From NCBI GenBank assembly GCA_018816335.1, contig JAHIVP010000024.1, positions 1-60,170 of the forward strand: a stretch of DNA of 60,170 nt, read 5' to 3'. The notes below the pieces were generated by a model that was not told the DNA's origin, did no database searches, and saw only the letters and a program-made list of their open reading frames with translations. The DNA is from Nanobdellota archaeon. Its GTDB lineage: Archaea > Nanobdellota > Nanobdellia > Pacearchaeales > GW2011-AR1. Below, piece by piece: positions 4,071 through 29,632 of the stretch. The translations under genes and the position numbers were made by a program. Position 1 is the stretch's first letter. Every line of letters begins with the position of its first letter.

Positions 4071-4143
4071 AGCCCCTTAGTCTAGTGGTCAAGGATCCTG
4101 CCCTTTGGAGGCAGGGACCCAGGTTCGAATCCTGGAGGGGCTA
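4071..4143 (+). tRNA. tRNA-Gln (anticodon TTG)
   Basis: Hand-folded cloverleaf: acceptor AGCCCCT/AGGGGCT, anticodon stem CTGCC/GGCAG, loop CTTTGGA, T arm CCAGG-TTCGAAT-CCTGG, discriminator A. Confidence 0.85.
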
Positions 4144-4145
4144 TT

Positions 4146-4277
4146 TATGCTATTGAAGATAGCAATTATTTTCATGATTTGAACCTGGAGGTTCGACGAG
4201 CATATTCACGAGTGGTGTGAGTTAGGGTATATCTAAATAAAAAGGCGAGTGAGTATGGGAGCACTGGAGGGGCTATT
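4146..4277 (+). repeat. tRNA-Gln trailer: GCE-related insert ending in a 14-nt copy of the tRNA 3' end
   Basis: ctggaggggctatt occurs at 4132-4145 (the tRNA end) and again at 4264-4277. The interior ggttcgacgagcatattcacgagtggt...aaaaaggcgagtgagtatgggagca aligns with the tRNA-Leu trailer and with the GCE repeats. Confidence 0.75.
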
Positions 4278-4329
4278 ATATATTTTCTGTTATATAAATT
4301 ATTAAAAAGGGGTCATTGTTTTATTTTTT

Positions 4330-5025
4330 ATGGGAAGATGGAAATCTATTAGTCCTTGGTCGCAAGATCATATGTATAAGCAGATTGTTAGAGAGGGTGG
4401 TTTTATTCTAACTAGGGGGGCTATGAATCTTAGTTTTGGAGATCCAGAAAATCATGCTCTTGGAGGGAGAGTAGCGATTCCTTCGTTTCAATTATTAAAG
4501 GTCCATAAAAAACATCCTATGAGGGTTATTGATTCTGGAAAAATTACAATTCGTCCTCAAGGGGATACTCGTTTAATGGGTCGAATTGTTGATGATCCTG
4601 ATCCTACTATTTATGATTCAGCGTCTGTTTTTGTTCTTCCTTTTCCTTATTCGTCTGATTCGGATCGAGATCTTAACCAAACTTTTGGAGGAGTGTGGGA
4701 ACTTTCTTGTGGCATGAAAAGAGAAGATAGAACAGAAACTGGAGTTACTGTTTTGTATCATGGAAAAAGGGGCCTTAGTATTGATGGTACTGAGGCTAGA
4801 ACTTGGAGTGTGGTTACCCCTTCTCAGATTCCAGATCATCTATTTCAATGGTTTTACCAAGGACAGAAGATTAATGCTTTTGATCAAGATAGACAAATTT
4901 ACACTCCCGCAGGTAGATTTGAATTTCCTGCAGAAATGGCTAGAGATTTAACAACTGGAGTATCTAGAAAATTAGAGAAAAGATTTAAGACAAGAATGAT
5001 TAGAGATACTACTTCTGGTTTTTAG
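4330..5025 (+). CDS. Lys-poor orphan protein B (function unknown)
   Basis: 231-aa ATG ORF preceded by a TATA-like tract (ttatataaattattaaaaa). Composition is atypical for the window. The 3' end overlaps the convergent Bud32 stop by 17 nt. Confidence 0.7.
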   Translation: MGRWKSISPWSQDHMYKQIVREGGFILTRGAMNLSFGDPENHALGGRVAIPSFQLLKVHKKHPMRVIDSGKITIRPQGDTRLMGRIVDDPDPTIYDSASVFVLPFPYSSDSDRDLNQTFGGVWELSCGMKREDRTETGVTVLYHGKRGLSIDGTEARTWSVVTPSQIPDHLFQWFYQGQKINAFDQDRQIYTPAGRFEFPAEMARDLTTGVSRKLEKRFKTRMIRDTTSGF

Positions 5026-5839
5026 TAGATCGTTTATATCTTCCTCTTTTTTCAACTGCTTCTAATCTTTCTAGAACTTGTTTAGAATTTTCTGAGTTTT
5101 TATATCCTTTTAGAAACGATTTGAGTAGAGCTTCATAATTTTGAAAGTGTTTTGCTTCTAGAGCTTGTTTTAGTAGATGGATGTCTACTGCTTTGTCTTC
5201 TAATTTATTTGAGATATATCCTAGGCCGAAGTCTATTAAGAATATTTTGAAATTTTCTGTAACCCCATATAAAACCCTCCCTCCCTCCCTTTTAATGGTG
5301 TTACTTTTTTTATTAAGTGAAGAAGGTTTTAATGATAGGTTGTGAGATTTGGTAGATTTAGTATCAATAGGATTATTTACTAGAATCATATTTGATGTTG
5401 TGAGGTCTCCGTGGATTATATCTGAATCGTGGAGTTTAGCAATATCTTGGCCTATTATTTGGGCTATTTTTTCTTGGGTTAATTTTTTTGCAACACTATG
5501 TAAAACCCTCCCGCCCTCCCTTTTAATAGTGTTGCTATTATTTTGAGATAATTTAATTTCTTTTTCAGTTGGATAATCATTGAGATTAGTTGATAGTTTT
5601 TGTCCATCTATAAATTCCATTTTTATTTCTGAAGTATTATTTGTTGAAATTAGGTTTGGAACATTGATTATTTTAGAAGCTTTTTCTAGAATTTTGTATT
5701 CTGATTTTGTTCTTCTTTTTCTTAGTTGGGTGTCTAGTTGAGGGTGTCTATATGATTTTTTTATTCTGTGTTTTAGAATTGTATTATTTGATTTAGAAAT
5801 TATTGCTTCTGCTCCTCTTCCTATTATTTCTTTACTCAT
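5009..5839 (-). CDS. bud32: Bud32/PRPK-type (Kae1-associated) protein kinase carrying two in-frame repeat insertions
   Basis: IGRGAEA N-terminus, catalytic loop HGDLTTSNMIL and LIDFGLG motif. It is 276 aa and encodes the peptide SNTIKREGGRVL twice, each from a PAL-C palindrome. Confidence 0.8.
   Translation of the reverse strand: MSKEIIGRGAEAIISKSNNTILKHRIKKSYRHPQLDTQLRKRRTKSEYKILEKASKIINVPNLISTNNTSEIKMEFIDGQKLSTNLNDYPTEKEIKLSQNNSNTIKREGGRVLHSVAKKLTQEKIAQIIGQDIAKLHDSDIIHGDLTTSNMILVNNPIDTKSTKSHNLSLKPSSLNKKSNTIKREGGRVLYGVTENFKIFLIDFGLGYISNKLEDKAVDIHLLKQALEAKHFQNYEALLKSFLKGYKNSENSKQVLERLEAVEKRGRYKRSTKNQK
5259..5304 (+). repeat. PAL-C palindrome inside Bud32 (copy 1)
   Basis: gtaaccccatataaaa-CCCTCCCTCCCTCCC-ttttaatggtgttac. 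The arms are inverted repeats. The C-tract at 5275-5289 reads GGGAGGGAGGGAGGG on the coding (-) strand. Confidence 0.85.
5490..5535 (+). repeat. PAL-C palindrome inside Bud32 (copy 2)
   Basis: gcaacactatgtaaaa-CCCTCCCGCCCTCCC-ttttaatagtgttgc. The architecture matches copy 1 but the arm sequence differs. Confidence 0.85.
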
Positions 5840-6296
5840 CTTTCATTCTATCAATTATATTTGTAGAAGAGTGATCTGGAATTCTATTGATTATATGAAT
5901 TCGTCCTCCATGCTTTTTGACTGTAGGAGCTTCTATACAATCTTTTCCATATTCTGATCCATTTGCATGAACATGAGGTTTTAATTTTTCTAGAAAGTTT
6001 ATAGGAGTTGTTTCGTTGAATATTAAAACATAATCTACTGGGTCTAGTGATGATAAGATTCTTGCTCTAGTTTCTTGGTCTTTTATTGGACGTGTTGGAC
6101 CTTTGTATTGTTTTATTGATGAATCTGAGTTTAGTCCTACAATTAAAACATCTCCTTGAGCTTTAGCTTGTTCTAAGATGTGTATGTGTCCTTTATGTAA
6201 AATATCAAAACTTCCGTTTATTGTAACAACTGTTTTATTTTCTTTTTTTAGTTTTTCTATAATAGGAATTAATTCTTCTACTGTTTTTATTGGCAT
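5832..6296 (-). CDS. cytidylyltransferase-fold nucleotidyltransferase (RfaE-II / RibL-like)
   Basis: GSFDILHKGHIHIL carries the (H/T)xGH signature. The ~150-aa single-domain size fits. It overlaps the Bud32 start by 8 nt. Confidence 0.65.
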   Translation of the reverse strand: MPIKTVEELIPIIEKLKKENKTVVTINGSFDILHKGHIHILEQAKAQGDVLIVGLNSDSSIKQYKGPTRPIKDQETRARILSSLDPVDYVLIFNETTPINFLEKLKPHVHANGSEYGKDCIEAPTVKKHGGRIHIINRIPDHSSTNIIDRMKDE

Positions 6297-6316
6297 GAGT
6301 ATGATTTGTGATAGAG

Positions 6317-6991
6317 TTATATTTGAATTTTTTCTCCAGGTGCAAATTCTTTTGTTTCTTCTAAACTTATAATTGTTATTGGTTTTAATCCTATTGCTTT
6401 GTAACTATTGTCTTCTTTTAAGAGTGCAGATACTTCTGGAATTGCTATGATGTTCCTATTTGTTTTTTTAATATATTCAATATGCTCTTGGATTTGATCT
6501 TCTTCAAAATGGCATTGGATATCATAATTTTTTATTAGGCTTAATCCTGTTGTGTCTTTTAGTTTTACTTTATTAACATCTGCGTCTTTACAAATTAGAG
6601 CAATGTTTATATCTCTTCCTAAGATTATTGCCCCTGCTGAACCGCCATATATAGTTCCACCAGCATTATAGTAATTGATTAATTTTTTTCCAAAATTACT
6701 GTCTTTGATTAGTTTGAGTAATTTAAAAGTATTTCCTCCGCCAATATAAATTGCATCGTATTTTGTTAATTCAATTTCTTTAGTTAAATCTATAAGCATC
6801 TCAATTTCTATTTCTTTCTTTTTATGCTGGGCCATGAGTTTTGTAAACCATTCTAAACAACTATTGTAATCTCCATTTGGCCATGCAAGAGGGATGTAGA
6901 GGATTGTATTAATATCTTTCATGAATATCTCATCTAGTGAATGAGTTTGTTTTTCATTTCCTCCTCCTGATAGAAATAATCTTCCTTTCAT
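6317..6991 (-). CDS. peptidase S51 (dipeptidase E-like) / class-I glutamine amidotransferase-like
   Basis: LFLSGGGNE..., IYIGGGNTFKLLKLI and GGTIYGGSAGAIILG are typical S51 motifs. Confidence 0.65.
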   Translation of the reverse strand: MKGRLFLSGGGNEKQTHSLDEIFMKDINTILYIPLAWPNGDYNSCLEWFTKLMAQHKKKEIEIEMLIDLTKEIELTKYDAIYIGGGNTFKLLKLIKDSNFGKKLINYYNAGGTIYGGSAGAIILGRDINIALICKDADVNKVKLKDTTGLSLIKNYDIQCHFEEDQIQEHIEYIKKTNRNIIAIPEVSALLKEDNSYKAIGLKPITIISLEETKEFAPGEKIQI

Positions 6992-6992
6992 T

Positions 6993-8459: not shown

Positions 8460-8466
8460 AAAAGAA

Positions 8467-12580: not shown

Positions 12581-12683
12581 GCCTCCGTAGCTCAGTGGTA
12601 GAGCAATTGCCTTGTATGTGACTAAGGCTGAAATTAGTCAAAAAGAGAGCAATAGGTCGCAGGTTCAAATCCTGCCGGGGGCT
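12581..12683 (+). tRNA. tRNA-Thr (anticodon TGT) with an intron of ~31 nt after position 37
   Basis: Acceptor GCCTCCG/CGGGGGC, D arm GCTC-AGTGGTA-GAGC, anticodon stem ATTGC...GCAAT. The intron contains the helix GACTAA/TTAGTC. T arm GCAGG-TTCAAAT-CCTGC. Confidence 0.8.
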
Positions 12684-16953: not shown

Positions 16954-18819
16954 ATGTTTTTTATGATATCTAAAAGAGGACAGGTCGCTATATTCATAAT
17001 TATAGCAATTATTATAGTTGCAGGAGTAATTGTGTATTTTCTTGTAAAAGATAGGACAAGTTATTCTAATATTCCTAGTGAATTTCAGCCTGTTGAAGAT
17101 TATTTTCTAAGTTGTATTGAAGATATAGTAAGAAATGGGAAAGATGTTATGGGGACGCAAGGAGGATATATTGAGCCTCCAAATTTTGACCCGGGTAGTG
17201 ATTTTATGCCTTTTTCATCTCAATTAAATTTTTATGGTTGGCCTGTTCCGTATTGGTATTATAAATCAGGTGTCAATATAATTAAAGAGCAAGTTCCATC
17301 GAAAGATGATATGGAGGAAGAGTTGAATAAATATATTCAAGATAGAGTTGGTGATTGTGATTTTGGAGATTTTGTTGTAGAGGGTTTTATTGTTGAAAGA
17401 GAGGAAGGTGTTAGAGTTCAGACAGATATTGGTGTTAATCAAATTTTTGTTAATTTGAATGCTCCTATTAATGTTAATAGAGGAGAGGAGAGTGTTAGAA
17501 TAGAGGAACATGAAGTTCAGTTAGATACAAAGTTTGGTAAGTTTTATGATTTGGCTGTTGATATTTATGATTATGAGAAAGAGGAAATGTTTTTAGAAAA
17601 TTATGCTGTTGATGTTTTGAGATTGTATGCTCCTGTTGATGGTTTTGAAATTCAGTGTAGTCCGTTGATTTGGGCTTTTAATGAAGTAGTTGATGAGGTT
17701 AAACAAGGGTTGAGTGGAAATATGCAAGCAATTAGATTGACAGGAGATTATTATGATGATTCTCATGATTATTTTGTTCAGGATTTGAGAAGTGATGAGG
17801 CTGTTAGATTTTTGTATGATCCAAGTTGGCCTACTAGAATTGAAGTTTGGCCTTCTGATAGTGGGATTTTAATTGCAGAACCTGTAGGAACTCAAGAAGG
17901 TTTAGGAATTTTAGGATTTTGTTATGTTCCTTATCATTATGTTTATGATTTGAATTATCCTGTTTTAGTTCAAATTTATGATGAAGCAGAATTGTTTCAG
18001 TTTCCTGTTGCTGTTATAATTGATAAGAACAGACCTAGGGAGGCTTTGCCTGCAACAGAAGTTAGAGATGCTACAACTGAATTGTGTAAATATAGAAATT
18101 CTAGAATGGAAGTTTATACTTATGATACTGGATTGAATCCTGTTGAAGCAGATATTAGTTTTAAATGTATTTCTGATAGTTGTTATATTGGAAAGACACA
18201 GATTAGTGGTAGTGATGCTAAGTTATCTGAGAATTTTCCTCAGTGTGTGAATGGACATGTTGTTGCTAAAGCAGAGGGTTATGTAAATAAAAAGCATCAG
18301 GTTTCAACTAATGTTGATGGACAGGTTGTTGATATTGTTTTAGATAAAATATATGATATTGGTCTTAATTTGAAGTTGGATGGGAGAGATTCAGATAGTA
18401 TGGCTGTTATTTATTTTCAATCTGAAGATTATTCTGCAACTGTATCTTGGCCTCAGCAAAGAAGTATAAGTTTAGCTCAAGGAGATTATAATGTAACTGT
18501 TTATGTTTATCAAAATTCTAGTTTGAAATTAGAAGGTTATACAACTGAAAAATGTACTGATGTTCCTAGAGAGGGTTTGTTGGGAATGTTTGGTTTAACA
18601 ACTGAAAAGTGTTTTGATATTTCTGTTCCTGATCAAATAGTTTCAATGAGTTTGTCAGGAGGGGGAAAAACTCAAGAATATATTGTTGATACAAATCTTA
18701 GAGATTATAGTGTTATAGAAATATCTGTAGAGAGTATGCCAAAACCTACAACCCTTGAAGAGCTACAAGATAATTATAATTTGTTTGAATATAAAAGAGT
18801 TTATGTTGAATATAAATAA
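16954..18819 (+). CDS. large extracellular protein with a type IV pilin-like (class III) signal peptide
   Basis: N-terminus MFFMISKRGQ-VAIFIIIAIIIVAGVIVYFLV has KRG(Q) followed by ~20 hydrophobic residues, as in archaeal prepilin-peptidase substrates. The remaining ~590 aa are Cys-containing and acidic. No family recognised. Confidence 0.6.
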   Translation: MFFMISKRGQVAIFIIIAIIIVAGVIVYFLVKDRTSYSNIPSEFQPVEDYFLSCIEDIVRNGKDVMGTQGGYIEPPNFDPGSDFMPFSSQLNFYGWPVPYWYYKSGVNIIKEQVPSKDDMEEELNKYIQDRVGDCDFGDFVVEGFIVEREEGVRVQTDIGVNQIFVNLNAPINVNRGEESVRIEEHEVQLDTKFGKFYDLAVDIYDYEKEEMFLENYAVDVLRLYAPVDGFEIQCSPLIWAFNEVVDEVKQGLSGNMQAIRLTGDYYDDSHDYFVQDLRSDEAVRFLYDPSWPTRIEVWPSDSGILIAEPVGTQEGLGILGFCYVPYHYVYDLNYPVLVQIYDEAELFQFPVAVIIDKNRPREALPATEVRDATTELCKYRNSRMEVYTYDTGLNPVEADISFKCISDSCYIGKTQISGSDAKLSENFPQCVNGHVVAKAEGYVNKKHQVSTNVDGQVVDIVLDKIYDIGLNLKLDGRDSDSMAVIYFQSEDYSATVSWPQQRSISLAQGDYNVTVYVYQNSSLKLEGYTTEKCTDVPREGLLGMFGLTTEKCFDISVPDQIVSMSLSGGGKTQEYIVDTNLRDYSVIEISVESMPKPTTLEELQDNYNLFEYKRVYVEYK

Positions 18820-18820
18820 A

Positions 18821-21800
18821 ATGAAAGATATAAAAATAAATAAGATTGGAATTTTTTTAGTTGGAGCTATGTTTATTTTAACTTTGTGTATGCCTTTTAT
18901 TTTTGCAATTGATAGTTCTTCTACAACAACTTCTACATTTCCTAATAATCCTTCTTCAAGTTCAAGTGTTTCTGGGTTTTCAGGAACTAGTCCTTCATAT
19001 TCTAATTTTCCTGATAATAGTCAGTTTTGGCCGATTTATGGGAATCAAGATACTTGTTATGCTACTCAAGATTTTATTTTGAATATTCCCCTAGGTGGTT
19101 GTAGTCCTGCAATTGTTAGGAGTGATTTATTAGAAGAACAACCTGTTCCTGTTTTTTGTAAAGTTGATGCTTTGAAAATTAATCCTTTTGCTGATATTTC
19201 TATGATTAAGGGTGTGACTTTTTCTGCGAGAAGTTATCCTCCTGAAGTTTCTGGAATTGGGTTTCATCCAATAAGAAGTGCTTTAAGAGTTCAAGATCAG
19301 GTTTTAGATACTCCGTTTTATGGAAGTATTGGTTATTTGGTTGTTACATTAAAAAGAATTCCTGCTGAGAGAGATATGCCTGAGTGGATACAAGTTAATT
19401 TGACTGGAAAGTTAGGGTATGATGTTAGTAGATATGCTGGGCCAGGACAAAATGAATATTATTTGGAATTGTTGACTGAAGATGAATGGAAGCAGAAGTA
19501 TAAAGATAATAATTTATTGAAAGGAAAAGCTTATATTCGAGCTGAGTGGATTGAAAATGATGAAGCTGAGATTGGATTGTATGATGAGAATTTACAGCAA
19601 GTTCAAAAAGTTAAGTTGAAACAAGGACAGACTTCTGATGATATTTATATGCCTGGATTTTATTGTAAAGTTGGTTTGAGAATTACATTGAGTGCTATGA
19701 CTTATGCTGATAGAGAAGCAAAGTTAGAAATTGATAATAATATTCAGTGGGTAAGAGTTGGAACAAGATTTTTAGATGATAGATGTAGGGTTTTGGGAAT
19801 TGATGTTGCTAATAAAAAAGTTAGAATTGAGTGTGCTCCTCCTAGAAAATCTTTTGAATTGAAATTGAAAGGTTCAAGTGGAACTGAGATTAATAATGGA
19901 ATTAATAATATTAATGTTAATGTAGGTGAGGTTGTTAATCCTAGTGAGCAAGATGTTACTAAGAGATATTGGTCTGTTTATTCAGGAAGTGTTCCTAAAA
20001 ATTTAGATGCAACAGAAGAGAAGTTTTTGATATTAGTTAAAAATGTTTCTTCAAGTCATATTGAAAATTTAAGAGTTAAACAATCTACTTTGAGTGCTAT
20101 AACTACTAAAATTGAGAGAATTAGTGCGAAGACTCAACAAGAATATTTGAATAAACTTTTAGAGATAAAAGATGTTTTTGGAAATAATTTTGATGTTAAT
20201 AATATTAAACTTTTAAAAGTAGGTGAGAAGGATTCTGAGTCTGGATTTATTTATAATAAACCAACTTCTGGTCCTGATAAAGATTTTTCAGGTGGAAGTA
20301 ATCCTAATGCTGGTAGAATTTTGAATGAGTATTATAATGAAGCAAAAGCAACAGCTGAGAATTTAGATCAGATGTATGGTGGAGAGGCTTGTGTTGAAGG
20401 AAAATGTGGGGAAGTTGGTTTGAGAGAGTTAGTTCAGTTGTCAGGAGCTATTGGAAAACAATATACTAGAAATCAGATTAATCAGAGATTAGGTGAAGGA
20501 TATAATGTTGGTTTAGCAAATGATAATGTTGATACTAGTGATGCTTCGATTCAATTTGAACTTGATGGGAGATTTCATACTGTTAGATTGTTAGATGTTA
20601 AAGATAGTGCTCAGTCTGGGAATTATGGGGATTTTACAATTGTTGAAGGTGGAACAAGTAAACCAAAGAGGATTGGAATTGGGCAGTATATTGATAATCA
20701 AGCATTGATTAAATTAATTGATTTGAAAGATGATAGAGCTACTTTTGAATATTTTGAAAAAGATCAGAATAGTAATGATATTAGGAAGACTTCTGTTGTT
20801 CAGTTATATTCAACTGTTAATATTTTAGGAAATGTTATAACTTTTAATGATGTTAAGTTGAAGAAGGTTGCTAAGGTTAGTGTGAATACAAATTCTCCTG
20901 CTGGTTTTACAGATACTAATTTTACTTTTAAGATTGCTATTGAGAAAAGAGCAATTGAGTTGTCTCCTAATAAGACAAGTAAGTTGATTGATAAGATTAA
21001 TAAGACAGTTCAAAAGTTGGAAGATATTAGTGAGAAATTAGGAGAGGTTGTTAAGGTTATGAAGTTAGCTTGTTTTGCAACATCTACGATTCTAACTGTT
21101 AAGACATTTTTTGAAAATTTAGGTGGAAGAGGAATGGCTAGACAAAAAGTTATGGGTTATTGGTATGATAATTGTGAGCAAGAGTCTCAGGGAGATAAGA
21201 ATTTATTTAATGCTTGTTTGAAAAATAATAATGCTCAGATTGAAGGAGATATTAATAATTATGCTGGGAATTTGCAGTCTGTTAATAATAATTTACAAAA
21301 TATTCAGAATAATAATTTGAATCCTGCTAATGGAGCTGTTGATGGGTCTAAGGCTTTGGCTGCGTATAAGATTTATATGAATAAATATGTTGGAACTACA
21401 ACATTTACTACTGAGAGTGGGAAGACAGTTTCTGTTACTGCTGATATGATTAATAGTGCTGGAACATTGCAAGAATTAAGAGATTTAGAATTAGCTGCTT
21501 TGAATTCTAAAGCTGGAGCAAGCACTGGAAAAGCAGGGAATAATGAAGGCTATGGTGTTGCAAATAGATTGCAGCAAAGAGTTGCTATTGATAATTCTAA
21601 TCAAAATGCTCAGTCAATATTTGGAAATGGGATTAGTGTTGATTTAGATTATAGTGCTAATGGAACTGTTATTAGAGGTTATCATGGGCAGAGTTGGAAG
21701 AATTTTAGAGATGCTGGATTTTCTATTTCTGGAAATGATGGAACTGTTAAAGATGAGACTCCTGCTCAAGCATTGACTGTTGGAGGTCTTTCTTATATTG

Positions 21801-24800
21801 CTATTTTAGGAAAAAGAATTTCTGGTGTTGGAAGTTATAATGCTGTTTCTTGGTATGAAGTTGGAAGTGGTAAATCATTAACTGCTCCTCTTAGTAGAGA
21901 AGAGGTAGATAGAAGGGGATTGAGTAGTATTCAGTTTGCTCGAAGAGATCCTAGTGCTTTGGTTAATCCGTGGAGAAATCCAACAGTAAGATTTTATGAT
22001 TCTGGGAATTTTAAGGGATTGCCTGCTGTTGTTCCTTTAGGAAGGAGATTAGGAGAACAAGAAGGTTGGTATGTTGCTACTATGCCTTTTAGTATTGAGA
22101 ATAAAAATACAAAGGCTTATACTGATGCTGGACAGATGAGGAATTTTTATATTTGTAATGTTGGAGCAAATGGTTTAGAGGAATTTGAAAGTTCTTTAAG
22201 AGATGATCAGTGTCAGTTTATTAATTTAGATATTAGAAAACCTGATAATGTTTTGGGATTGCCTGTTCAGAAATCTAATGAGTTGGTTGATAAATCTGAG
22301 AAAGCTTTGCGTCAGGCTGCTGAAGGTTTTGCTAATATAAAACCTGGTGAAGATGCTTATATAACTATTTTAGATGGAAGATATAAAGTTGGGAAGCCTG
22401 GAAGAAAGAAGGGAGGAAGGTGTCAGGATTTTATGTCTCCTCAAGATTGTTATATTTTGTTTAATGTTTGTGATCCTGTTATTTGTCCTCCATCAAGATG
22501 TGATATGGGTGGGGCTTATCCTGTAGATGATGTTATTCAGACAGGAATTGTTGGGAGTATTGCTTTATGTTTACCAAATATTAAAGAGGGAATTATGGTT
22601 CCTGTTTGTATTTCTGGTATTCATGCTGGTATAGAAGGTTTGACAAGTATTTTGAGGGCAACTAGAGATTGTATGGTTGAGAGTTTGAAGACAGGACAGA
22701 ATATTGGGATATGTGATGAGATTCAATCAATTTATCTTTGTGAGTTTTTATGGAGACAGTTAACTCCAATTATGAATATGTTGATTCCTGCGATGATTGA
22801 AAGTACTTATGGGCAGGGGACAAGGGGAGGAGGGGAATATTTGACTGTTCAGAATGCATGGCAAAATGTCGAGGGTTCAATTGATTATATGACTAACCAA
22901 TATGCTGTAAATGCTTTTAATGCTTTCAAAGCTCGAAGTACTGATGATGTTGGTGGAGAAATATGTAAGATGTTTATATCAGCAAGATATCCTTCTAATA
23001 AAGATTTTTTTGATGCTTTGCTTGAGCCAGAGAGTCCTCATCAATTTTCTGCTTGGTTCCATGAGATTCCTTATAGTGAGGCAACAACTCCTGCAACTTC
23101 ACAATATAAAGTTTATTATCATATTTATGCTGGAAAAAATAGAGGTGTTTATTATTCTGTTTATTTAAGAGATCCTCCTGAATCAAGTCAGTATAATGTT
23201 CAGCCTATGATTGTGGTTGATACTGGATTTATTGGAGTTGGACAGTATGCTGATCAGGCTAAAGATTTTACAGCTCCTAAAGGATATAAGCAATTGTGTG
23301 TTAGAATAGATAATAAGGAAGAGTGTGGGTTTAAGCAAGTTTCAAGTGATTTTGCTTTGAATATTATTAAAGATACTTATGCTAGTGAGCAAGCGACTCA
23401 GAGGGCGACTTCAACTCAGACTTGTGTTGGTGGGACAGCAAGTATTTATGCGTTTTCTTCTTTAAATATTCAGGAAGGAGCACAAGAAGCTTTGAATCCT
23501 GAAATGGGGAAGAGAGGAATTGTTAGGGTTTGTGCAACTGATAATCCTGGGAAATCTACTAATGCTGCTAGATGGACTGATGTTGGTGTTTGTGATGAAC
23601 CTGATATGAAGTGTTGGCTTGATACAGATTCTGTTAAAAATGCTATCACAGCTAGGAATATAGAGAACCAGACTTTGCAAGCTGCTGGATTTAATGTAAC
23701 TCAATATTTTGATTCAACCGGAGTTTATACTCCTCAATATACAAATAGTATGTTGGTTAATTTGAAAATTAAACTTGCTGAAATTAATTTTAATTCAGCT
23801 TATGGTGAGAGATTAGTTAATGAAGGTGGGACAAGTGCTGCTGGTTATTCAGAAACTGAGTTTGGAAGATTGATTAGAGATATTAAGGACTTACAAGAAA
23901 GAGCTCATAATAATAATTATAAGGCTCGGGCAATGTTGTTAGAGTTCCAGGCATATGAGAGAGCTGTTAGAGCTGTTTATTTGAAATATTTTGGTAAAGA
24001 GCATGATGTTGAACATGCTCCTGTTACTTCTGGGGATTCTGCAACTGAGGGGGTCTATGGGTTGAGATCAGAAGATTTTAATGCTGGAGAGCAGAGAGTT
24101 ATTGCTGGAATAAAAATATATTCTGGAGAAGTGTATACTGGTATTTTTATTGTTAGACATGTAAATGAGGAGATTATATATATTACTGATGGTAATTTGC
24201 CTAGAAGTATTGGGAGAGTTATAAATGGTGTATTGGACATTAATATTAATCAAATTCCTGAAAGTAAAATTAATATTAAAAAATATGCTGCAGCAGTTGA
24301 TAATGCTAGAGTAGATTTAAATGTATTAAGTATTGTCTTGGCTGCTTCGAGTAGTTCAAGTGGTGGAAGTTCGACATCAAGTACATCAACAAGTGGAACA
24401 GGAACTCAAACTCCTGAGAATATAATTAAAAGTTTTAATAGGTATCCTTATTTTGATAGTTATAAAAGATTTCTTGTTAATTTAGGAAACGATGAAAATG
24501 GAAATGTTGTTGGAGTTTATGCTTTGGATTCAAGTAGAAATTTGGTTTGGAGTTCTGATGGAAGTGATTTTACAAGTGTTGAAGCTGATATTGCTAATGG
24601 TGATGCTTGGAAGACTCAGTTGAAAGGAGAGTTACTTGATTTGTTTAATAGACAGTTGACTTTGATTCCTAGTGAGATTTTAGTTGGAGATGAATTAATA
24701 GATAAGAATGGAGTATTTTATGTTGTTGATGTTGCTAGAGAGATTGAGGGAACTGTGGGAAGAGTTTTTTTTATACATAAGTTTGATGATAGTAGTAAAA

Positions 24801-24874
24801 CAATTACTTTTAGGTGGGAAGAAGAAGTTGGAATTGATGAATTGTCTCAGATATATGCTAAGAAGATGAATTGA
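18821..24874 (+). CDS. giant secreted Cys-rich protein (~2017 aa)
   Basis: The ATG at 18821 follows the upstream stop by one nt. Signal peptide MKDIKINKIGIFLVGAMFILTLCMPFIFA, Ser/Thr-rich linkers (SSSTTTS; SSSSSGGSSTSSTSTSGTGT), and a Cys-dense segment CQDFMSPQDCYILFNVCDPVICPPSRCD. The tracked 18755 start is a TTG extension. Confidence 0.7.
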   Translation: MKDIKINKIGIFLVGAMFILTLCMPFIFAIDSSSTTTSTFPNNPSSSSSVSGFSGTSPSYSNFPDNSQFWPIYGNQDTCYATQDFILNIPLGGCSPAIVRSDLLEEQPVPVFCKVDALKINPFADISMIKGVTFSARSYPPEVSGIGFHPIRSALRVQDQVLDTPFYGSIGYLVVTLKRIPAERDMPEWIQVNLTGKLGYDVSRYAGPGQNEYYLELLTEDEWKQKYKDNNLLKGKAYIRAEWIENDEAEIGLYDENLQQVQKVKLKQGQTSDDIYMPGFYCKVGLRITLSAMTYADREAKLEIDNNIQWVRVGTRFLDDRCRVLGIDVANKKVRIECAPPRKSFELKLKGSSGTEINNGINNINVNVGEVVNPSEQDVTKRYWSVYSGSVPKNLDATEEKFLILVKNVSSSHIENLRVKQSTLSAITTKIERISAKTQQEYLNKLLEIKDVFGNNFDVNNIKLLKVGEKDSESGFIYNKPTSGPDKDFSGGSNPNAGRILNEYYNEAKATAENLDQMYGGEACVEGKCGEVGLRELVQLSGAIGKQYTRNQINQRLGEGYNVGLANDNVDTSDASIQFELDGRFHTVRLLDVKDSAQSGNYGDFTIVEGGTSKPKRIGIGQYIDNQALIKLIDLKDDRATFEYFEKDQNSNDIRKTSVVQLYSTVNILGNVITFNDVKLKKVAKVSVNTNSPAGFTDTNFTFKIAIEKRAIELSPNKTSKLIDKINKTVQKLEDISEKLGEVVKVMKLACFATSTILTVKTFFENLGGRGMARQKVMGYWYDNCEQESQGDKNLFNACLKNNNAQIEGDINNYAGNLQSVNNNLQNIQNNNLNPANGAVDGSKALAAYKIYMNKYVGTTTFTTESGKTVSVTADMINSAGTLQELRDLELAALNSKAGASTGKAGNNEGYGVANRLQQRVAIDNSNQNAQSIFGNGISVDLDYSANGTVIRGYHGQSWKNFRDAGFSISGNDGTVKDETPAQALTVGGLSYIAILGKRISGVGSYNAVSWYEVGSGKSLTAPLSREEVDRRGLSSIQFARRDPSALVNPWRNPTVRFYDSGNFKGLPAVVPLGRRLGEQEGWYVATMPFSIENKNTKAYTDAGQMRNFYICNVGANGLEEFESSLRDDQCQFINLDIRKPDNVLGLPVQKSNELVDKSEKALRQAAEGFANIKPGEDAYITILDGRYKVGKPGRKKGGRCQDFMSPQDCYILFNVCDPVICPPSRCDMGGAYPVDDVIQTGIVGSIALCLPNIKEGIMVPVCISGIHAGIEGLTSILRATRDCMVESLKTGQNIGICDEIQSIYLCEFLWRQLTPIMNMLIPAMIESTYGQGTRGGGEYLTVQNAWQNVEGSIDYMTNQYAVNAFNAFKARSTDDVGGEICKMFISARYPSNKDFFDALLEPESPHQFSAWFHEIPYSEATTPATSQYKVYYHIYAGKNRGVYYSVYLRDPPESSQYNVQPMIVVDTGFIGVGQYADQAKDFTAPKGYKQLCVRIDNKEECGFKQVSSDFALNIIKDTYASEQATQRATSTQTCVGGTASIYAFSSLNIQEGAQEALNPEMGKRGIVRVCATDNPGKSTNAARWTDVGVCDEPDMKCWLDTDSVKNAITARNIENQTLQAAGFNVTQYFDSTGVYTPQYTNSMLVNLKIKLAEINFNSAYGERLVNEGGTSAAGYSETEFGRLIRDIKDLQERAHNNNYKARAMLLEFQAYERAVRAVYLKYFGKEHDVEHAPVTSGDSATEGVYGLRSEDFNAGEQRVIAGIKIYSGEVYTGIFIVRHVNEEIIYITDGNLPRSIGRVINGVLDININQIPESKINIKKYAAAVDNARVDLNVLSIVLAASSSSSGGSSTSSTSTSGTGTQTPENIIKSFNRYPYFDSYKRFLVNLGNDENGNVVGVYALDSSRNLVWSSDGSDFTSVEADIANGDAWKTQLKGELLDLFNRQLTLIPSEILVGDELIDKNGVFYVVDVAREIEGTVGRVFFIHKFDDSSKTITFRWEEEVGIDELSQIYAKKMN

Positions 24875-24885
24875 TTTTTGAAGAA

Positions 24886-25020
24886 TGCGGGGAGAAAGAT
24901 GCTCGAGACCCCGCTCGCCTTTTCGTGCTTTGTTATCCCACCAAGAATACCACTCGCGAAATCTCTCGTCGAACCCTTGGTTCTTATCCAAATATAAAAT
25001 CCTATCTTTGATAGGAGGTA
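24886..25020 (-). repeat. tRNA-Leu trailer: GCE-related insert ending in a 15-nt copy of the tRNA 3' end
   Basis: tgcggggagaaagat occurs at 25021-25035 (the tRNA 3' end on the - strand) and again at 24886-24900. The interior (- strand) gggttcgacgagagatttcgcgagtggt...aaaaggcgagcggggtctcgagca aligns with the tRNA-Gln trailer. Confidence 0.75.
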
Positions 25021-25104
25021 TGCGGGGAGAAAGATTTGAACTCTCGTAGGCACTAAGCCACTAGGTCCTAAGCCTAGCCCGTTTGACCGCTCCGGCATCC
25101 CCGC
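25021..25104 (-). tRNA. tRNA-Leu (anticodon TAG), long variable arm
   Basis: Reverse complement gcggggatgccggagcggtcaaacgggctaggcttaggacctagtggcttagtgcctacgagagttcaaatctttctccccgca. Anticodon stem CTAGG/CCTAG, loop CTTAGGA. Confidence 0.85.
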
Positions 25105-25150
25105 TTAAGAATAGTAGATATATTTGTTTTATAAGGGTTTTGATTTAGAA

Positions 25151-27183: not shown

Positions 27184-27261
27184 AATTTGATTAGATAATT
27201 TTGGTTTTTAAATCTTGGGGTTTATAGTAAGTTTTATAAACTAAACTGAAGGAGATAGATT

Positions 27262-27513
27262 ATGGTTAATGGAATTGAAAGACCTCTGGACCTTTTGAAT
27301 CAATCGAAGGGTAAAGAGATTTTGGTGCAGTTGAAAAGTGGAAATCAACTTGTTGGAACTTTGTTAGCATTTGACATACACATCAATGTTGTGTTAGATA
27401 ATGCAAAGGAAATGCAAGACGGAGAAATGAAAAGAAGTATTGGTTTGTCTTTTTTGAGAGGAGATACGATAATTTTTATTTCGCCTGCATCTGTGTCTAC
27501 TGATAAGAAATAA
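27262..27513 (+). CDS. archaeal Sm-like (LSm) protein
   Basis: Sm1/Sm2 motifs: PLDLLNQSKGKEILVQLKSGNQLVGTLLAFDIHINVVLDNA....IGLSFLRGDTIIFI. Confidence 0.85.
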   Translation: MVNGIERPLDLLNQSKGKEILVQLKSGNQLVGTLLAFDIHINVVLDNAKEMQDGEMKRSIGLSFLRGDTIIFISPASVSTDKK

Positions 27514-27596
27514 TAACAAGCGTTTCTGTGTTGATTTTCGCTGCAGAGTGTTCTTGTTTTTTAGGGTTAGTGGGAACTTCGGAAGATTTACAATAA

Positions 27597-27644
27597 TTTT
27601 TCCTACACAATAAACCCTCCCTCCCACCCTTTATTGTAGGAAAA
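27597..27644 (+). repeat. PAL-C palindrome
   Basis: ttttcctacacaataaa-CCCTCCCTCCCACCCT-ttattgtaggaaaa, between the convergent Sm and RNase Z genes. Confidence 0.8.
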
Positions 27645-27693
27645 AATTAACTCTAAAATTATTTTTTAATAGAAAATTTTTATGTACTTAGAA

Positions 27694-28602
27694 CTAAATC
27701 TCAACAACCATCAAATCCTTAGCTAACTTTGTATTCTTGAAAACAGATTGAGCTTCTTTGAGAATTAATTTATCTTTGTGTTCGTATCTTTGGGAAATGT
27801 GAGTTAGGATTAATTCTTTTGCTTTGCTTGATTTTGCAATTTGAGCTGCTTGTTTTGCTGTCATGTGTTTGTATTCTTCTGCTAATTGTTTTCCATTATC
27901 TGAATTATCTAGGAATGTTGATTCACAAATCAATAAGTCTGAATTTTCTGCTAGTGTTTTAATTGAAGGATTTGTTTTTGTATCCATAATTATTGTTAGT
28001 TTTTTCCCTGGTTCTTTATATGTTAAATCTGAAGCTTTGATTGTTTTTCCATTTAGATTAATATTTTTTCCTTGAGCTAGTTGGCCTATTAGTTTTGAGT
28101 TTGGTATTTTTAGTTTTGCTAATTTCTTTTTATCTATTCTTATTTTTTCTTTTTCTTCTATTGAGTAAGCTAAGCTTGGAGCTCCGTGGTTCATTGGGCG
28201 AGAATTAATTAAAAGATCTTTTGTTTCTGCTACTTTTCCTGAAGTGATTTCTTTTATTTTCATTTTGAGTTTGTTTTTAAATTTGAAGATATTAAGTATC
28301 TCTTTGATGTATTTTGATGTTCCTTTAGGTCCGTAGATTTCTAATTCTTTTTTATAGCCGTTTAATGCTAATGTTTGAAATAATCCTGGGAGTCCTAGGA
28401 TGTGATCTCCGTGCCAGTGAGTTATTAGGATTTTTGTTATTTTTCCTGGGTTGATTTTTGCTTTACGAAATTGTCTTTGAGTTCCTTCTCCACAATCTAT
28501 TAGAATGTTTTCTTCATTGTACTGAACTAGAATTGCTGTGTGGTTTCGACTAGCTGTTGGGATTTGTCCGCTTGTTCCTAAAAAGGTTATGTTTATTTTC
28601 AT
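27694..28602 (-). CDS. rnz: ribonuclease Z (tRNA 3' endonuclease)
   Basis: MKINITFLGTSG.., metallo-beta-lactamase motif ITHWHGDHILGLPGL, C-terminal LTHIS. The tracked 5' extension to 28638 runs into a PAL-C repeat. Confidence 0.85.
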   Translation of the reverse strand: MKINITFLGTSGQIPTASRNHTAILVQYNEENILIDCGEGTQRQFRKAKINPGKITKILITHWHGDHILGLPGLFQTLALNGYKKELEIYGPKGTSKYIKEILNIFKFKNKLKMKIKEITSGKVAETKDLLINSRPMNHGAPSLAYSIEEKEKIRIDKKKLAKLKIPNSKLIGQLAQGKNINLNGKTIKASDLTYKEPGKKLTIIMDTKTNPSIKTLAENSDLLICESTFLDNSDNGKQLAEEYKHMTAKQAAQIAKSSKAKELILTHISQRYEHKDKLILKEAQSVFKNTKLAKDLMVVEI

Positions 28603-28611
28603 TTTGTTATT

Positions 28612-28660
28612 TTTACACCATACAAATAACCCTCCCACCCACCCTTATTTATGGTGTAAA
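28612..28660 (+). repeat. PAL-C palindrome
   Basis: tttacaccatacaaataa-CCCTCCCACCCACCCT-tatttatggtgtaaa, immediately upstream of the RNase Z start. The gene-sense strand reads GGGTGGGTGGGAGGG. Confidence 0.8.
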
Positions 28661-28726
28661 ATTTATTTATTATAGTAGTGAAAGTTTGTTTATATAATTT
28701 TGTTTTAGAATTAATTTAAACTAAAT

Positions 28727-28844
28727 GGCCCCGACAGGTCCTAAAAATATTTCATATTTTTGGTCCTCTAAACTCTGCTGTGCCTTTGCACAGATTAGAT
28801 TTATCGTTTAGAGTATTTGAACCTGCTTCTTGGTTCAAACTAAA
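28727..28844 (-). repeat. tRNA-Arg trailer: interrupted second copy of the T arm plus acceptor 3' half
   Basis: On the - strand: GCAGGTTCAAAT, then a ~75-nt insert with helices CTCTAAAC/GTTTAGAG and CTGTGC/GCACAG, then CCTGTCGGGGCC. The 12-nt ggccccgacagg is duplicated at 28727-28738 and 28846-28857. Confidence 0.7.
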
Positions 28845-28919
28845 CGGCCCCGACAGGATTTGAACCTGCGACCTCTTACTTAGAAGGCAAGCGCTCTATC
28901 CAGGCTGAGCTACAGGGCC
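28845..28919 (-). tRNA. tRNA-Arg (anticodon TCT)
   Basis: Reverse complement ggccctgtagctcagcctggatagagcgcttgccttctaagtaagaggtcgcaggttcaaatcctgtcggggccg. Anticodon loop CTTCTAA. Confidence 0.85.
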
Positions 28920-28976
28920 TTAAATTTTATAAGAAATAAAGGTTTTTTAAACTTTAGTTTATTGATGTTTTAGAAA

Positions 28977-29381
28977 ATGAAGGTGATGTTTATTTGTAAG
29001 CATAATAGATTTAGAAGTAAGGTAGCTGAGTCTATTTTTGCAAACTATGCAAATGGAAGGCATCAGGTTCGGAGTAGGGGGTTGATTATTGATATGGATG
29101 TTCATCCTAATGTTAAGAAGGCTTTGAAATCTATTGGAGTTAAGTTGAAGGTTGATGGTTCTCGGTCTCTTTCTGTTGAAGATTTTAATTGGGCTGATAT
29201 TGAAGTTATTGTTGCTGATGATGTTCCGAAGAAATTGTTTTTGCAATATGATACAAAGATTATTGTTTGGAAAATTAGAGATACTCACCAGACTAATTAT
29301 AAAGGTATTTTAGCTAGAGTTAAAGATATAGAGAAGAGGGTTAAGAAGTTGGTTGAAGAGCTGGATAATAAGAAATACTAA
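28977..29381 (+). CDS. low-molecular-weight phosphotyrosine phosphatase / ArsC-like
   Basis: N-terminal P-loop VMFICKHNRFRS (CX5R-S) and ~130-aa size. Confidence 0.75.
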   Translation: MKVMFICKHNRFRSKVAESIFANYANGRHQVRSRGLIIDMDVHPNVKKALKSIGVKLKVDGSRSLSVEDFNWADIEVIVADDVPKKLFLQYDTKIIVWKIRDTHQTNYKGILARVKDIEKRVKKLVEELDNKKY

Positions 29382-29414
29382 AGTTTTTAAGTTGTAAAAT
29401 TCTAGTTGCAATAT

Positions 29415-29456
29415 GCGCGGATGGAGAGATTAAAAATCTCAGTATCCTCGCGAGAC
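29415..29456 (+). repeat. 5' flank of tRNA-Cys starting with a 10-nt copy of the tRNA 5' end
   Basis: gcgcggatgg occurs at 29415-29424 and again at 29457-29466 (the tRNA 5' end). The spacer contains the hairpin gagat-taaaa-atctc. Confidence 0.6.
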
Positions 29457-29530
29457 GCGCGGATGGCGAAGTGGTTAACGCGTTCGGCTGCAACCCGGAT
29501 ATTCCAAGGGTTCGAATCCCTTTCCGCGCT
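29457..29530 (+). tRNA. tRNA-Cys (anticodon GCA)
   Basis: Acceptor GCGCGGA/TCCGCGC, anticodon stem TTCGG/CCGGA, loop CTGCAAC, T arm AAGGG-TTCGAAT-CCCTT, discriminator T. Confidence 0.85.
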
Positions 29531-29632
29531 TATGGATTCGAAACGAGGAGTGAATTGCGAAGCAAGAGAACCTAGGTTCTGGATGCTGGAGTAACTAGAA
29601 CCCGCAGGAGGTTCTAGGTTTGAATCCCTTTC
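29531..29632 (+). repeat. tRNA-Cys trailer ending in a second copy of the T arm plus acceptor 3' half
   Basis: gaatccctttccgcgctta recurs at the end of the trailer (tRNA copy at ~29514-29532, trailer copy ending ~29632). The interior starts ggattcgaaacgaggagtgaat (T-loop-like) and contains the palindrome agaacctaggttct and the hairpin ctagaacc/ggttctag. Confidence 0.7.

Follow-up and report, generated by a model that had tools for sequence, protein, structure and literature searches.

Hairpin cassettes of about 100 bp at tRNA gene ends of Pacearchaeota appear to be mobile DNA of a new, miniature type with links to tRNA introns

Introduction

How archaeal tRNA genes gain introns at odd positions or become split or permuted, and what role mobile elements play in these events, is an open question. 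Casposons, which are Cas1-dependent transposons, reside at tRNA 3' ends and generate target duplications of 14-15 bp. In phage T4, free-standing endonuclease genes next to tRNA genes spread by intronless homing; the end of the Allomyces mitochondrial atp6 gene is reportedly replaced in a process driven by a homing endonuclease, and double-hairpin elements occur in Allomyces mitochondrial DNA. The closest model in the literature is the disruption of a tRNA gene by a 1.8-kb recombinase-bearing mobile element in Caldiarchaeum, the only population-level case met in our literature search; this mobile-element model stands beside the transposed non-canonical tRNA introns of Thermoproteales (PMC3293823). 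Yeast mitochondrial GC clusters are small, GC-rich mobile hairpin elements of AT-rich compact genomes (PMC4478555), and a RAYT-type gene has been reported in Pacearchaeales (bioRxiv 10.64898/2026.05.13.725050). Here, we analyze a stretch of 60,170 nt from a Nanobdellota archaeon (contig JAHIVP010000024.1 of assembly GCA_018816335.1; subsequently designated the window), in which four tRNA genes are each followed by a short insert and a second copy of their own 3' end.

We propose that these inserts are miniature, non-coding and non-autonomous cassettes, which insert into the ends of tRNA genes and leave behind an intact tRNA gene and a displaced, decaying copy of the duplicated end. We assign this reading a probability of roughly 0.58. 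The inserts seem to represent a so far unseen, miniature form of mobile DNA that is akin to the tRNA introns of the lineage, and the literature search returned no earlier description of such cassettes. In this lineage, tRNA gene ends are frequently rewritten by elements of ~100 bp. Empty and filled alleles, arrays, inversions, intron modules and neighboring homing-endonuclease genes are all visible in public metagenomes, which makes the question testable. Of note, loci of this type will escape tRNA finders and annotators or be reported wrongly by them.

Results

Four tRNA genes of the window are followed by a displaced copy of their own 3' end

Seven tRNA genes were found in the window, six by ARAGORN and an intron-bearing tRNA-Thr (12581-12683) by Rfam; a first-pass annotation of the sequence had counted eight. 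Its central observation was confirmed: the genes for tRNA-Gln, tRNA-Leu, tRNA-Arg and tRNA-Cys are intact and each has its own 3' end repeated downstream, in copies of 13-21 nt located 89-119 nt away. The 5' copy proposed for tRNA-Cys at 29415-29424 was likewise recovered as an exact repeat. The displaced 3' copy of tRNA-Cys, thought to end at about 29632, extends further, with a tRNA-equivalent end at 29638 and a repeat end at 29640. The four loci are composed as follows (intact tRNAs found by both ARAGORN and Rfam):

4071-4143, + strand: intact tRNA-Gln(TTG)
4132-4145, + strand: proximal 3'-end copy of tRNA-Gln, CTGGAGGGGCTATT, comprising T-stem 3' strand, acceptor 3' strand, discriminator and 2 trailer nt
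4146-4263, + strand: Gln insert, family A cassette
4264-4277, + strand: displaced (distal) 3'-end copy of tRNA-Gln, CTGGAGGGGCTATT, exact repeat
25021-25104, - strand: intact tRNA-Leu(TAG)
25020-25035 (proximal) and 24885-24900 (displaced), - strand: 3'-end repeat of tRNA-Leu, ATCTTTCTCCCCGCAT, exact repeat
24901-25019, - strand: Leu insert, family A cassette
28845-28919, - strand: intact tRNA-Arg(TCT)
28846-28857 and 28727-28738, - strand: 3'-end repeat of tRNA-Arg, CCTGTCGGGGCC, exact
28718-28738, - strand: complete displaced copy of tRNA-Arg, CCTGTCGGGGCC-a-TTTAGTTT; the proximal copy (28837-28857) has g at the discriminator
28739-28836, - strand: Arg insert; z = -4.65; covariance model R1, 25.8 bits, E = 0.0018
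29415-29424, + strand: displaced 5' copy of tRNA-Cys, GCGCGGATGG, matching 29457-29466; TATA-like tract ~30 nt upstream
29425-29456, + strand: Cys 5' insert
29457-29530, + strand: intact tRNA-Cys(GCA)
29533-29621, + strand: Cys 3' insert, family C
29514-29532 and 29622-29640, + strand: 3'-end repeat of tRNA-Cys, GAATCCCTTTCCGCGCTTA; the displaced copy is GAATCCCTTTCCGCGCT plus TA

The Gln insert contains a hairpin (GCTAT-TGAAG-ATAGC, 4149-4163) and an AT-rich spacer, followed by a T-arm-like hairpin (TTTGAACC-TGGA-GGTTCGA, 4178-4196) and a module of the form CGAG-stem...stem-GGAGCA (4197-4263). The Leu insert consists of hairpin CCTATC-AAA-GATAGG, hairpin GAACC-AAG-GGTTC (24969-24983) and a module CGAG...CGAGC (24901-24968). 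At tRNA-Arg, one mismatch is followed by the trailer TTTAGTTT, which is also repeated (28837-28844 and 28718-28725), giving a duplicate of 21 nt. The Arg insert carries an inverted T-loop copy (TTTGAACC, 28832-28839) overlapping this repeated trailer, a direct T-arm copy (GCAGGTTCAAAT, 28815-28826) and the E2 double hairpin (hp) AC-hp1-G-GACC-hp2-AGGA (28739-28814), which splits the partial copy precisely at the junction of T-loop position 60 with T-stem position 61. In these three inserts the T-loop-like motif had been taken for the start of the insert; it is located 4-50 nt further in and forms the 3' arm of a GAACC...GGTTC hairpin. The Cys 3' insert also has an inverted T-loop copy (GGATTCGAA, 29534-29542), together with hairpin CTAGAACC-CGCAGGA-GGTTCTAG (29595-29617), and the displaced Cys 3' copy reaches back to G53 (GGTTTGAATCC...) when one T/C mismatch is allowed. 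In the Cys 5' insert, hairpin GAGAT-TAAAA-ATCTC is accompanied by a near-complement of the acceptor 5' strand, ATCCTCGCG (29444-29452); the same design is repeated in two relatives (L137, L162) with tRNA-specific changes.

Duplicated tRNA ends recur throughout the lineage

The window, which derives from a groundwater metagenome, has a G+C content of 31% and carries archaeal housekeeping genes (TFB, ribosomal proteins, SRP54, aminoacyl-tRNA synthetases, tRNase Z, tRNA splicing endonuclease); its nearest TFB relatives are annotated as Pacearchaeota/Nanoarchaeota. For comparison, contigs around TFB homologues were fetched, yielding 86 related loci (~0.9 Mb; L-numbers denote these and further relatives' loci). 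The 151 tRNAs of the window and the related loci, 122 after removal of redundancy, were scanned for end copies. A repeat was scored when the 3'-terminal 12-mer recurred with at most one mismatch within 300 nt downstream on the same strand, and six arrangements served as controls, in which the 3' end was sought upstream, the 5' end downstream, or either end in reverse complement. The 3' 12-mer recurred downstream in 29 of 151 tRNAs and the 5' 12-mer upstream in nine, as compared to none in all six control arrangements. Counting non-redundant tRNAs of the relatives, 25/122 had a 3' copy. About one tRNA gene in four to five of the Pacearchaeota window and its relatives bears a short insert, and the pattern is lineage-wide. 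The structures were also found in independent JGI, ENA and NCBI assemblies and are therefore not an assembly artefact. ARAGORN mislabeled several intron-bearing tRNAs of the relatives (tRNA-Arg(TCT) as Ser, Gly or Glu; tRNA-Leu as Pro) and did not detect the tRNA-Gln of L334, a locus that belongs to another Pacearchaeota population of the sample from which the window comes.

On the 3' side, the repeat starts at tRNA positions 53-63, i.e. between the last base of the T-stem 5' strand and the start of the T-stem 3' strand, and ends 0-10 nt past the tRNA. The duplicate measures 12-26 nt over the lineage, with 14-16 nt in family A alone and 18-26 bp in the other families. Across the lineage, cassettes measure ~60-190 bp; those of the window have 89-119 bp and no open reading frame (ORF). 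Every 3' copy lies within ~400 nt of its tRNA; a search for more distant copies matched only two neighboring Leu isoacceptors in L202. No kilobase-sized element separates a tRNA from its 3' copy: among ~133 tRNA loci, neither an exact nor a tolerant search (3 mismatches in 20) returned an insert >420 nt.

The 3' units follow a common order, namely tRNA, short hairpin, inverted piece of the host T arm, direct T-arm copy, structured module, and the remaining T-stem plus acceptor copy, with direct and inverted copies of the same 8-12 nt adjoining the junction. The inverted T-arm copy is often host-specific. Within 80 nt downstream, its mean longest match was 8.5 nt for tRNAs with a repeat and 5.1 nt for those without, as compared to 4.6-4.9 nt in upstream controls. 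In the 5' cases, a TATA box is located 25-30 nt upstream of the displaced copy, and several 5' inserts in relatives (L121, L201) bring their own TATA box ~30 nt before the rebuilt tRNA. Mismatches in the displaced copies disrupt the acceptor pairing, which is perfect in the proximal copies.

Empty sites, turnover and spread of the inserts

The loci exhibit insertion polymorphism with an exact empty site, spread of cassettes between tRNAs, arrays, decay of displaced copies and E2 modules in both orientations. Throughout the TFB set, the flanks were too diverged for matching of filled with empty alleles, leaving the pair L168/L191 and a trio of tRNA-Gln loci as usable cases. The ORF downstream of tRNA-Gln (4330-5025) has almost no relatives and thus provides no synteny anchor, so the S15 gene was taken instead. 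The tRNA-Gln locus of L336 proved to be an exact empty site: the flank right after ...GGGGCTATTT aligns with the L334 flank past the displaced copy, and the filled allele (L334) equals the empty one (L336) plus a 119-nt insert and a 15-nt duplicate. The comparison with relatives advised by the first-pass annotation reveals empty sites for all four tRNAs, with this exact pair for Gln. Among non-redundant loci, a 3' copy is lacking in 31/47 tRNA-Leu(TAG) (16/47 have one), in 17/20 tRNA-Arg(TCT) and in 14/16 tRNA-Cys.

The closest relative (L121/L122; TFB 96% identical) differs from the window at all three nearby tRNAs. Its tRNA-Cys has a different insert of 75 nt with a perfect 21-nt repeat; at tRNA-Leu, the whole unit including the promoter is inverted and contains another insert family with a degenerate copy; tRNA-Arg is inverted and has an intron and a displaced 5' copy, with no 3' insert. 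The earlier alternative had been a miniature integrative element or a conserved trailer RNA. Since empty sites are common and close relatives carry other inserts, the insertional, mobile part of this proposal is supported, and a conserved trailer common to all relatives is not.

The inversions comprise whole tRNA units (promoter, tRNA, insert, displaced copy) between flanks that keep their order (L122 8010-8250 and L121 7680-7900 versus 24885-25150 and 28718-28960 of the window), and tRNA-Arg is flipped between the genes for tRNase Z and a low-molecular-weight phosphatase. In 5/50 TFB-linked tRNA-Leu(TAG) loci, tRNA-Leu runs opposite to TFB.

Tandem arrays were observed with three identical units of 86 nt (L168), two of 93 nt (L200) and two of 129 nt (L203), and with three different units (L135). 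Furthermore, one cassette family can occupy different tRNAs of one genome, as seen for Gln and Leu in the window, Met and Arg in L121 and Leu and Val in L175. The Gln and Leu inserts of the window are homologous over their whole 119 nt, first hairpin included, in keeping with the alignment claimed at first pass. The T-arm-like piece of the Leu insert (CCAAGGGTTCGA) matches tRNA-Cys rather than tRNA-Leu, suggesting origin from another tRNA. In L121, the 5' inserts of Met and Arg are identical in 47/50 nt and differ only beside the tRNA, where each has an inverted copy of its own host 5' strand. Between the window and L334, the tRNA-Gln loci show four differences in tRNA nt 1-48, none in nt 49-76, four in the 119-nt insert and none in the displaced copy; identity of the neighboring S15 proteins is only 75%, and no alignment is possible in the outer flanks. 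Judged from these alignments, the pattern fits a recent transfer or co-conversion of the block from the T arm to the displaced copy, the alternative being constraint.

Insert modules belong to few hairpin families and also occur free-standing

The modules represent a few strand-asymmetric hairpin families (A, E2, B and C). Family A, with the architecture CGAG-stem...stem-(C/G)GAG, comprises the Gln and Leu inserts and four free copies in the window, which belong to the dispersed GCE repeats. For CGAG-[stem, 8 bp or more]...[stem]-(C/G)GAG, 13 matches were obtained in 0.9 Mb versus 0-1 in shuffles; the motif CGAG-N8-CGAGKGG had three versus 0.07 expected, and CGAGYGNGGTYKSGAG five versus 0 expected. 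The homology of two inserts to GCE claimed at first pass is borne out as regards this common architecture and its motifs (CGAG-stem-(C/G)GAG). The free-standing elements are:

829-893 (core 837-886), - strand: free GCE/family A copy, downstream of and co-oriented with the eIF2-alpha gene
1736-1863 (core 1764-1846), - strand: free GCE copy with an extra internal hairpin, 91% identical to 57590-57717
41610-41674 (core 41618-41667), - strand: free GCE copy downstream of the tRNA splicing endonuclease gene; z = -3.4
57590-57717 (core 57618-57700), - strand: free GCE copy ~360 nt downstream of an rve/DDE transposase gene
59779-59895, + strand: free E2/B-like double-hairpin element, no tRNA nearby

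The last element is composed of an outer stem (CTCAAACTC/GAGTTTGAG), an inner hairpin (CTGCACCTACGCGCAG), hairpin GAAAATTTC-AAA-GAAATTTTC and GAGCA, followed by the T-loop-like hairpin TTTAAACTC-TTAC-GAGTTCAAA.

Family E2 is a double hairpin of the form AC-hp1-G-TTACC-hp2-GAGKA, found at tRNA-Arg of the window and in at least eight relatives. Flanking repeats are lacking, and the module invariably adjoins ...GAA(T)C|AC, where it separates T-loop position 60 or 61 of a partial copy from the T-stem 3' strand. In L168 and L139, covariance model R1 matched E2 best antisense to the tRNA (37 and 32 bits versus 17-22); these antisense modules occupy 52|53, which corresponds to 60|61 when the palindromic T arm is mirrored. 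The E2 hairpins covary: in an alignment fitted to the model, 92.7% of cells were paired and 16/17 pairs had changed on both sides, a value reached by 0/500 shuffles. Only E2 combines hairpins near both ends, lack of a target duplication and a position 3' of a fixed short motif on one strand, which are features of REP and of palindrome-associated elements of the IS200/IS605 type.

Family C displays the motif GGTTGCTGGA-N-AAACCCGCWGGAGGTTTT, present at 29560-29617 of the window, at 6175 and 20480 of L201 and at 1690 of L202. Outside the window it is found between two tRNAs, directly upstream of a tRNA-Leu 5' end or upstream of an ORF, in the latter case with a Shine-Dalgarno-like GGAGG 8 nt before ATG. 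Its stem GCTGG/CCCGC shows compensatory changes.

At the ends of the Gln, Leu and Arg inserts, at most 4 nt are shared in inverted orientation, and the duplication has no fixed length, unlike in miniature inverted-repeat transposable elements. Terminal inverted repeats and a casposon-like element were rejected. A K-turn reading of CGAG/GGAG was rejected since the complementary C-stem is lacking. Rfam searches at gathering and permissive thresholds returned no family for any insert or GCE. A scan of genome contigs with GGTTCGACGAG-N6-10-CGAGTGG gave 118 matches, all attributable to chance (high-G+C bacteria, haloarchaea). In viral contigs, the pattern scan for the E2 hairpin matched only unrelated phage coding sequence, and the matches to a 15-nt family C pattern look like chance.

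Relation of the modules to tRNA introns

Anticodon-loop introns are frequent in the lineage (25/133 non-redundant tRNAs) and long, with up to 84-135 nt. In L177, the anticodon-loop intron of tRNA-Leu is a family-A-like CGAG...GGAG element, and that of L152 tRNA-Leu has a similar start. Read by eye, the L177 intron can be drawn as a bulge-helix-bulge with sites 37/38; its predicted minimum-energy fold is a 3x3 internal loop. A further module, GGTTCCTT..AWCAACCTCC, is common to two anticodon introns and one 5' insert. At the T-loop positions, TTCG:CGAG can form the central helix, but the bulges measure 5 and 2-3 nt and the cleavage register is off, as judged by hand analysis of predicted folds, so that a canonical bulge-helix-bulge appears unlikely there. 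In the window, each insert comes after an intact tRNA, and none interrupts an only functional copy. All R1 matches were either behind an intact tRNA or free-standing, and none lay in the T arm of a sole-copy tRNA. The window encodes a splicing endonuclease (41933-42493, - strand) with tRNA_int_endo N and C domains.

An insert at a non-canonical position was seen in the L334 tRNA-Gln (~1150-1185, - strand), where a 31-nt D-loop insert (ATTCAATAAGCAGAAGTTTATTGAAGACTAT) follows GGTCAA; its AGACTA is complementary to the D-stem TAGTCT.

Candidate enzymes

The tRNA-targeting integrase mechanism with att sites, as initially envisaged, found no support: no integrase was detected in the ~50 ORFs of the window by Pfam scan, no kilobase insert occurs in ~133 loci, the duplicate is variable in length and E2 is free of repeats. 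The only gene of mobile type in the window encodes an rve/DDE transposase with an HTH_32 domain (58077-58925, - strand). The 128-nt GCE-containing repeat in its vicinity is the one that recurs at 1736-1863 with 91% identity.

In relatives, homologous LAGLIDADG ORFs end 20-70 nt upstream of a co-oriented tRNA in 4/4 cases:

L334 1187-2083: LAGLIDADG ORF at tRNA-Gln
L189 6656-7549: LAGLIDADG ORF at a Glu-like tRNA
L161 10236-11207: LAGLIDADG ORF at tRNA-Val
L159 703-1380: LAGLIDADG ORF at tRNA-Cys

The order at the L334 tRNA-Gln is promoter, displaced 5' fragment of 26 nt, ~1 kb with a LAGLIDADG ORF of 298 aa, second tRNA-Gln and a trailer insert of the window type. This locus is the only one with an endonuclease gene inside an insert, on the 5' side of the tRNA; the window has none. 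The LAGLIDADG homing endonuclease is the only candidate physically linked to the inserts in our data, with cleavage of tRNA genes being predicted. HUH-type single-strand transposition is a possible route that fits E2 best, and a hairpin-recognizing tyrosine recombinase is another possible enzyme.

Other features of the window

A 2039-aa ORF (18755-24874, + strand) and the preceding 621-aa ORF (16954-18819, + strand) have no Pfam match; relatives retain the pair in synteny, and it runs convergently towards the tRNA-Leu locus. Two paralogous Ser_hydrolase genes (29662-30213 and 30210-30797) sit side by side immediately behind the tRNA-Cys locus and share a 194-nt repeat with 72% identity; at this site the closest relative has one Ser_hydrolase gene and a gene with an ASCH domain instead. 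The region 33285-33831 resembles a diversity-generating retroelement (ORF 32700-33518, 272 aa; Rfam RT-16 at 33549-33737). A 91-nt repeat at the 3' end of the 272-aa ORF (33285-33375) is 81% identical to 33741-33831, and nearly all differences are G in the first versus A in the second copy, the bias to be anticipated between a variable repeat and its template. The two copies enclose the RT-16 RNA, and no reverse transcriptase ORF is present within ~1.5 kb. Finally, a family of intergenic hairpins of ~45-60 nt each was noted at 5269, 5500, 27609, 28624, 30893, 40369, 41485, 51218 and 56891. Their loop, located between AT-rich inverted repeats, reads CCCTCCCTCCCACCC on the + strand and GGGTGGGAGGGAGGG on the other strand (a G-quadruplex-type tract), and most copies are at gene ends.

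Discussion

We propose that insertion of a cassette would leave part of the tRNA gene twice. On the 3' side, the gene would be broken within the T loop or where the T-stem 3' strand begins (positions 53-63), and the promoter-proximal copy would complete an intact tRNA, leaving the copy beyond the insert to decay. On the 5' side, the old promoter would stay with the displaced 5' copy and in some relatives (L121, L201) the insert would bring a TATA box. Each cassette would consist of hairpin modules and a short inverted copy of the host T arm (or 5' strand) able to pair with the direct copy, with module architectures that appear common to anticodon-loop introns and free-standing GCE copies. Insertion would be directed to the palindromic T arm and take place at the DNA level, probably on folded single strands, by an enzyme that presumably acts in trans. 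In a LAGLIDADG variant, a double-strand break would be repaired with a donor allele as template, from which the cassette and the tRNA end beside it would be copied.

Several observations weigh against this proposal. The duplicate length of 12-26 nt does not match what a target-site duplication of fixed length or a single att core would give. As an inverted T-arm copy is also found behind ~10% of the repeat-free tRNAs, mainly tRNA-Arg, it may in part be a native trailer feature rather than an insertion footprint. The 96% identity of the Gln insert between genomes and the covariation of hairpins could reflect a function of the transcript; transcript data were uninformative, as the one small metatranscriptome contained 5% of the region's words and its contigs were tRNAs of other organisms. 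A circular or excised form was not seen. The Pfam scan of the window also returned no recombinase, Y1 transposase, Cas1 or homing endonuclease, and the LAGLIDADG genes of the relatives are all 5' of a tRNA, with none found inside a 3' insert.

Another possibility is that the inserts are functional trailer or processing RNAs co-transcribed with the tRNA, that is, terminator or stabilizer hairpins, substrates of tRNase Z or the splicing endonuclease, or small RNAs, whose repeated end and inverted copy are pairing partners. Strand asymmetry, G-U pairs and covariation of the hairpins support this idea, as do the four free GCE copies, all downstream of and co-oriented with a gene, the conservation of the Gln insert (96%) where S15 proteins are 75% identical, the presence of both processing enzymes in the window, and the inverted T-arm copies in trailers of some repeat-free tRNAs. 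We nevertheless consider it unlikely, given that most orthologous tRNAs have no insert, close relatives carry unrelated inserts at the same tRNA, displaced copies decay and no Rfam family emerged even at permissive thresholds. Moreover, the inverted copy of the 5' cassettes lies between the TATA box and +1 and thus would be outside the tRNA's own transcript, and E2 is antisense to the tRNA in L168 and L139. Being antisense, these copies cannot be introns either, which bears on a second explanation: T-arm or D-arm bulge-helix-bulge introns with a duplicated exon, in which the true exon would be, or until recently have been, the displaced copy, and insertion of an intron-free end copy would later have produced the apparently intact tRNA. 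This explanation draws on the family-A-like anticodon-loop intron of L177 and its counterpart with a similar start in L152, on the module GGTTCCTT..AWCAACCTCC in two anticodon introns and a 5' insert, on the exact positions at which E2 and A break the partial T-arm copy (60|61, 61|62, 58|59), on the 3'-terminal CGAG that by sequence can pair with T-loop TTCG, and on the splicing endonuclease gene; in L334, the old 5' fragment with the sole promoter could be exon 1 of a 1.1-kb endonuclease-bearing intron. It appears rather improbable in view of the complete proximal tRNA, the disabling mismatches of displaced copies, T-loop bulges of 5 and 2-3 nt with a non-canonical cleavage register, and the failure to find a sole-copy tRNA with a T-arm intron among the R1 matches.

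The inserts could also be scars of large integrative elements, i.e. viruses or plasmids with a tyrosine or SSV-type integrase, in which internal deletion has left attL and attR ~100 bp apart. The geometry of intact tRNA, insert and displaced 3' fragment with a T-loop crossover is indeed that of integrases, the displaced copy is the older one and arrays exist. We regard such scars as very unlikely: no insert exceeds 420 nt in ~133 tRNA loci even with 3 mismatches in 20 allowed, no integrase was found in the window, E2 has no repeat, and pattern scans of viral contigs yielded no related element. The inserts are instead conserved structured families of constant size that are common to several tRNAs. 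This homology of 55-119 nt of non-tRNA sequence at different tRNAs and in different genomes, together with the free-standing copies and the TATA boxes in some 5' inserts of relatives, is also left unexplained if nothing but local replication or repair errors occurred, such as template switching or snap-back synthesis at the palindromic T arm without any mobile element. Direct and inverted copies of the same 8-12 nt beside the junction, the palindrome TTCGAA and perfect tandem units, which could arise by slippage between 21-nt repeats, are what such errors would produce. The shared non-tRNA modules largely refute this last explanation, the least probable of the four, and errors may contribute to array expansion.

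Turning back to mobile cassettes, a wider version of the proposal is tentative, and we doubt it more than we believe it. Pacearchaeota, perhaps DPANN archaea more widely, might harbor an undescribed class of structure-defined cassettes, which would home as folded single-stranded DNA to the T arm or the D/acceptor region, rebuild the tRNA and act as a DNA-level source of the lineage's tRNA introns, the same modules being tolerated as introns where the splicing endonuclease can remove them. If true, this would provide a concrete, testable mechanism for non-canonical intron gain, splitting and orientation flips of archaeal tRNA genes.

How do the cassettes compare with known systems? With tRNA-targeting integrative elements they share an insert flanked by a tRNA 3' direct repeat, with the tRNA intact at one end and a partial copy of its 3' part displaced to the other, a break in or next to the T loop, tandems, and empty sites, precise in the case of Gln. 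They differ by their size of 60-190 bp without an ORF, by the lack of a detected integrase and by variable repeat length; in addition, cassettes occur on the 5' side as well, some with a promoter, and their module families are common to tRNA introns. Resemblance to casposons is confined to family A, whose duplicates of 14-16 bp cover the tRNA 3' end, whereas other families have duplicates of 18-26 bp and the cassettes have no terminal inverted repeats, Cas1 or polymerase.

Homing replacement of gene ends, as in Allomyces atp6, resembles the present loci in that the cassette comes with its own version of the gene end, pushes the resident one aside to decay as a pseudo-fragment and has its flank co-converted, and L334 even has a LAGLIDADG gene between the displaced 5' fragment and the rebuilt tRNA-Gln. 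However, the window inserts and all 3' inserts lack an endonuclease gene, and LAGLIDADG cleavage of tRNA genes is only predicted. GC clusters and double-hairpin elements are likewise short, G+C-rich hairpins, in our case in a genome of 31% G+C, located between genes and in RNA genes, with structure kept and sequence varying; the archaeal chromosome, the targeting of the tRNA T arm and the duplication of tRNA ends set the cassettes apart. From the REP/BIME-RAYT and IS200/IS605 (HUH Y1) systems the cassettes are distinguished by the absence of a Y1 transposase from the window and by tRNA-end repeats in complete units, but E2 has a hairpin at each end, no flanking repeat, a position 3' of a fixed motif on either strand, and strand-asymmetric pairing with G-T pairs. 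Unlike bulge-helix-bulge introns, the window modules stand outside the functional tRNA, have a non-canonical T-loop geometry and can be antisense. Nonetheless, their architecture and motif recur as anticodon-loop introns, their positions in the T-arm copy are precise, and the lineage that carries them is rich in introns.

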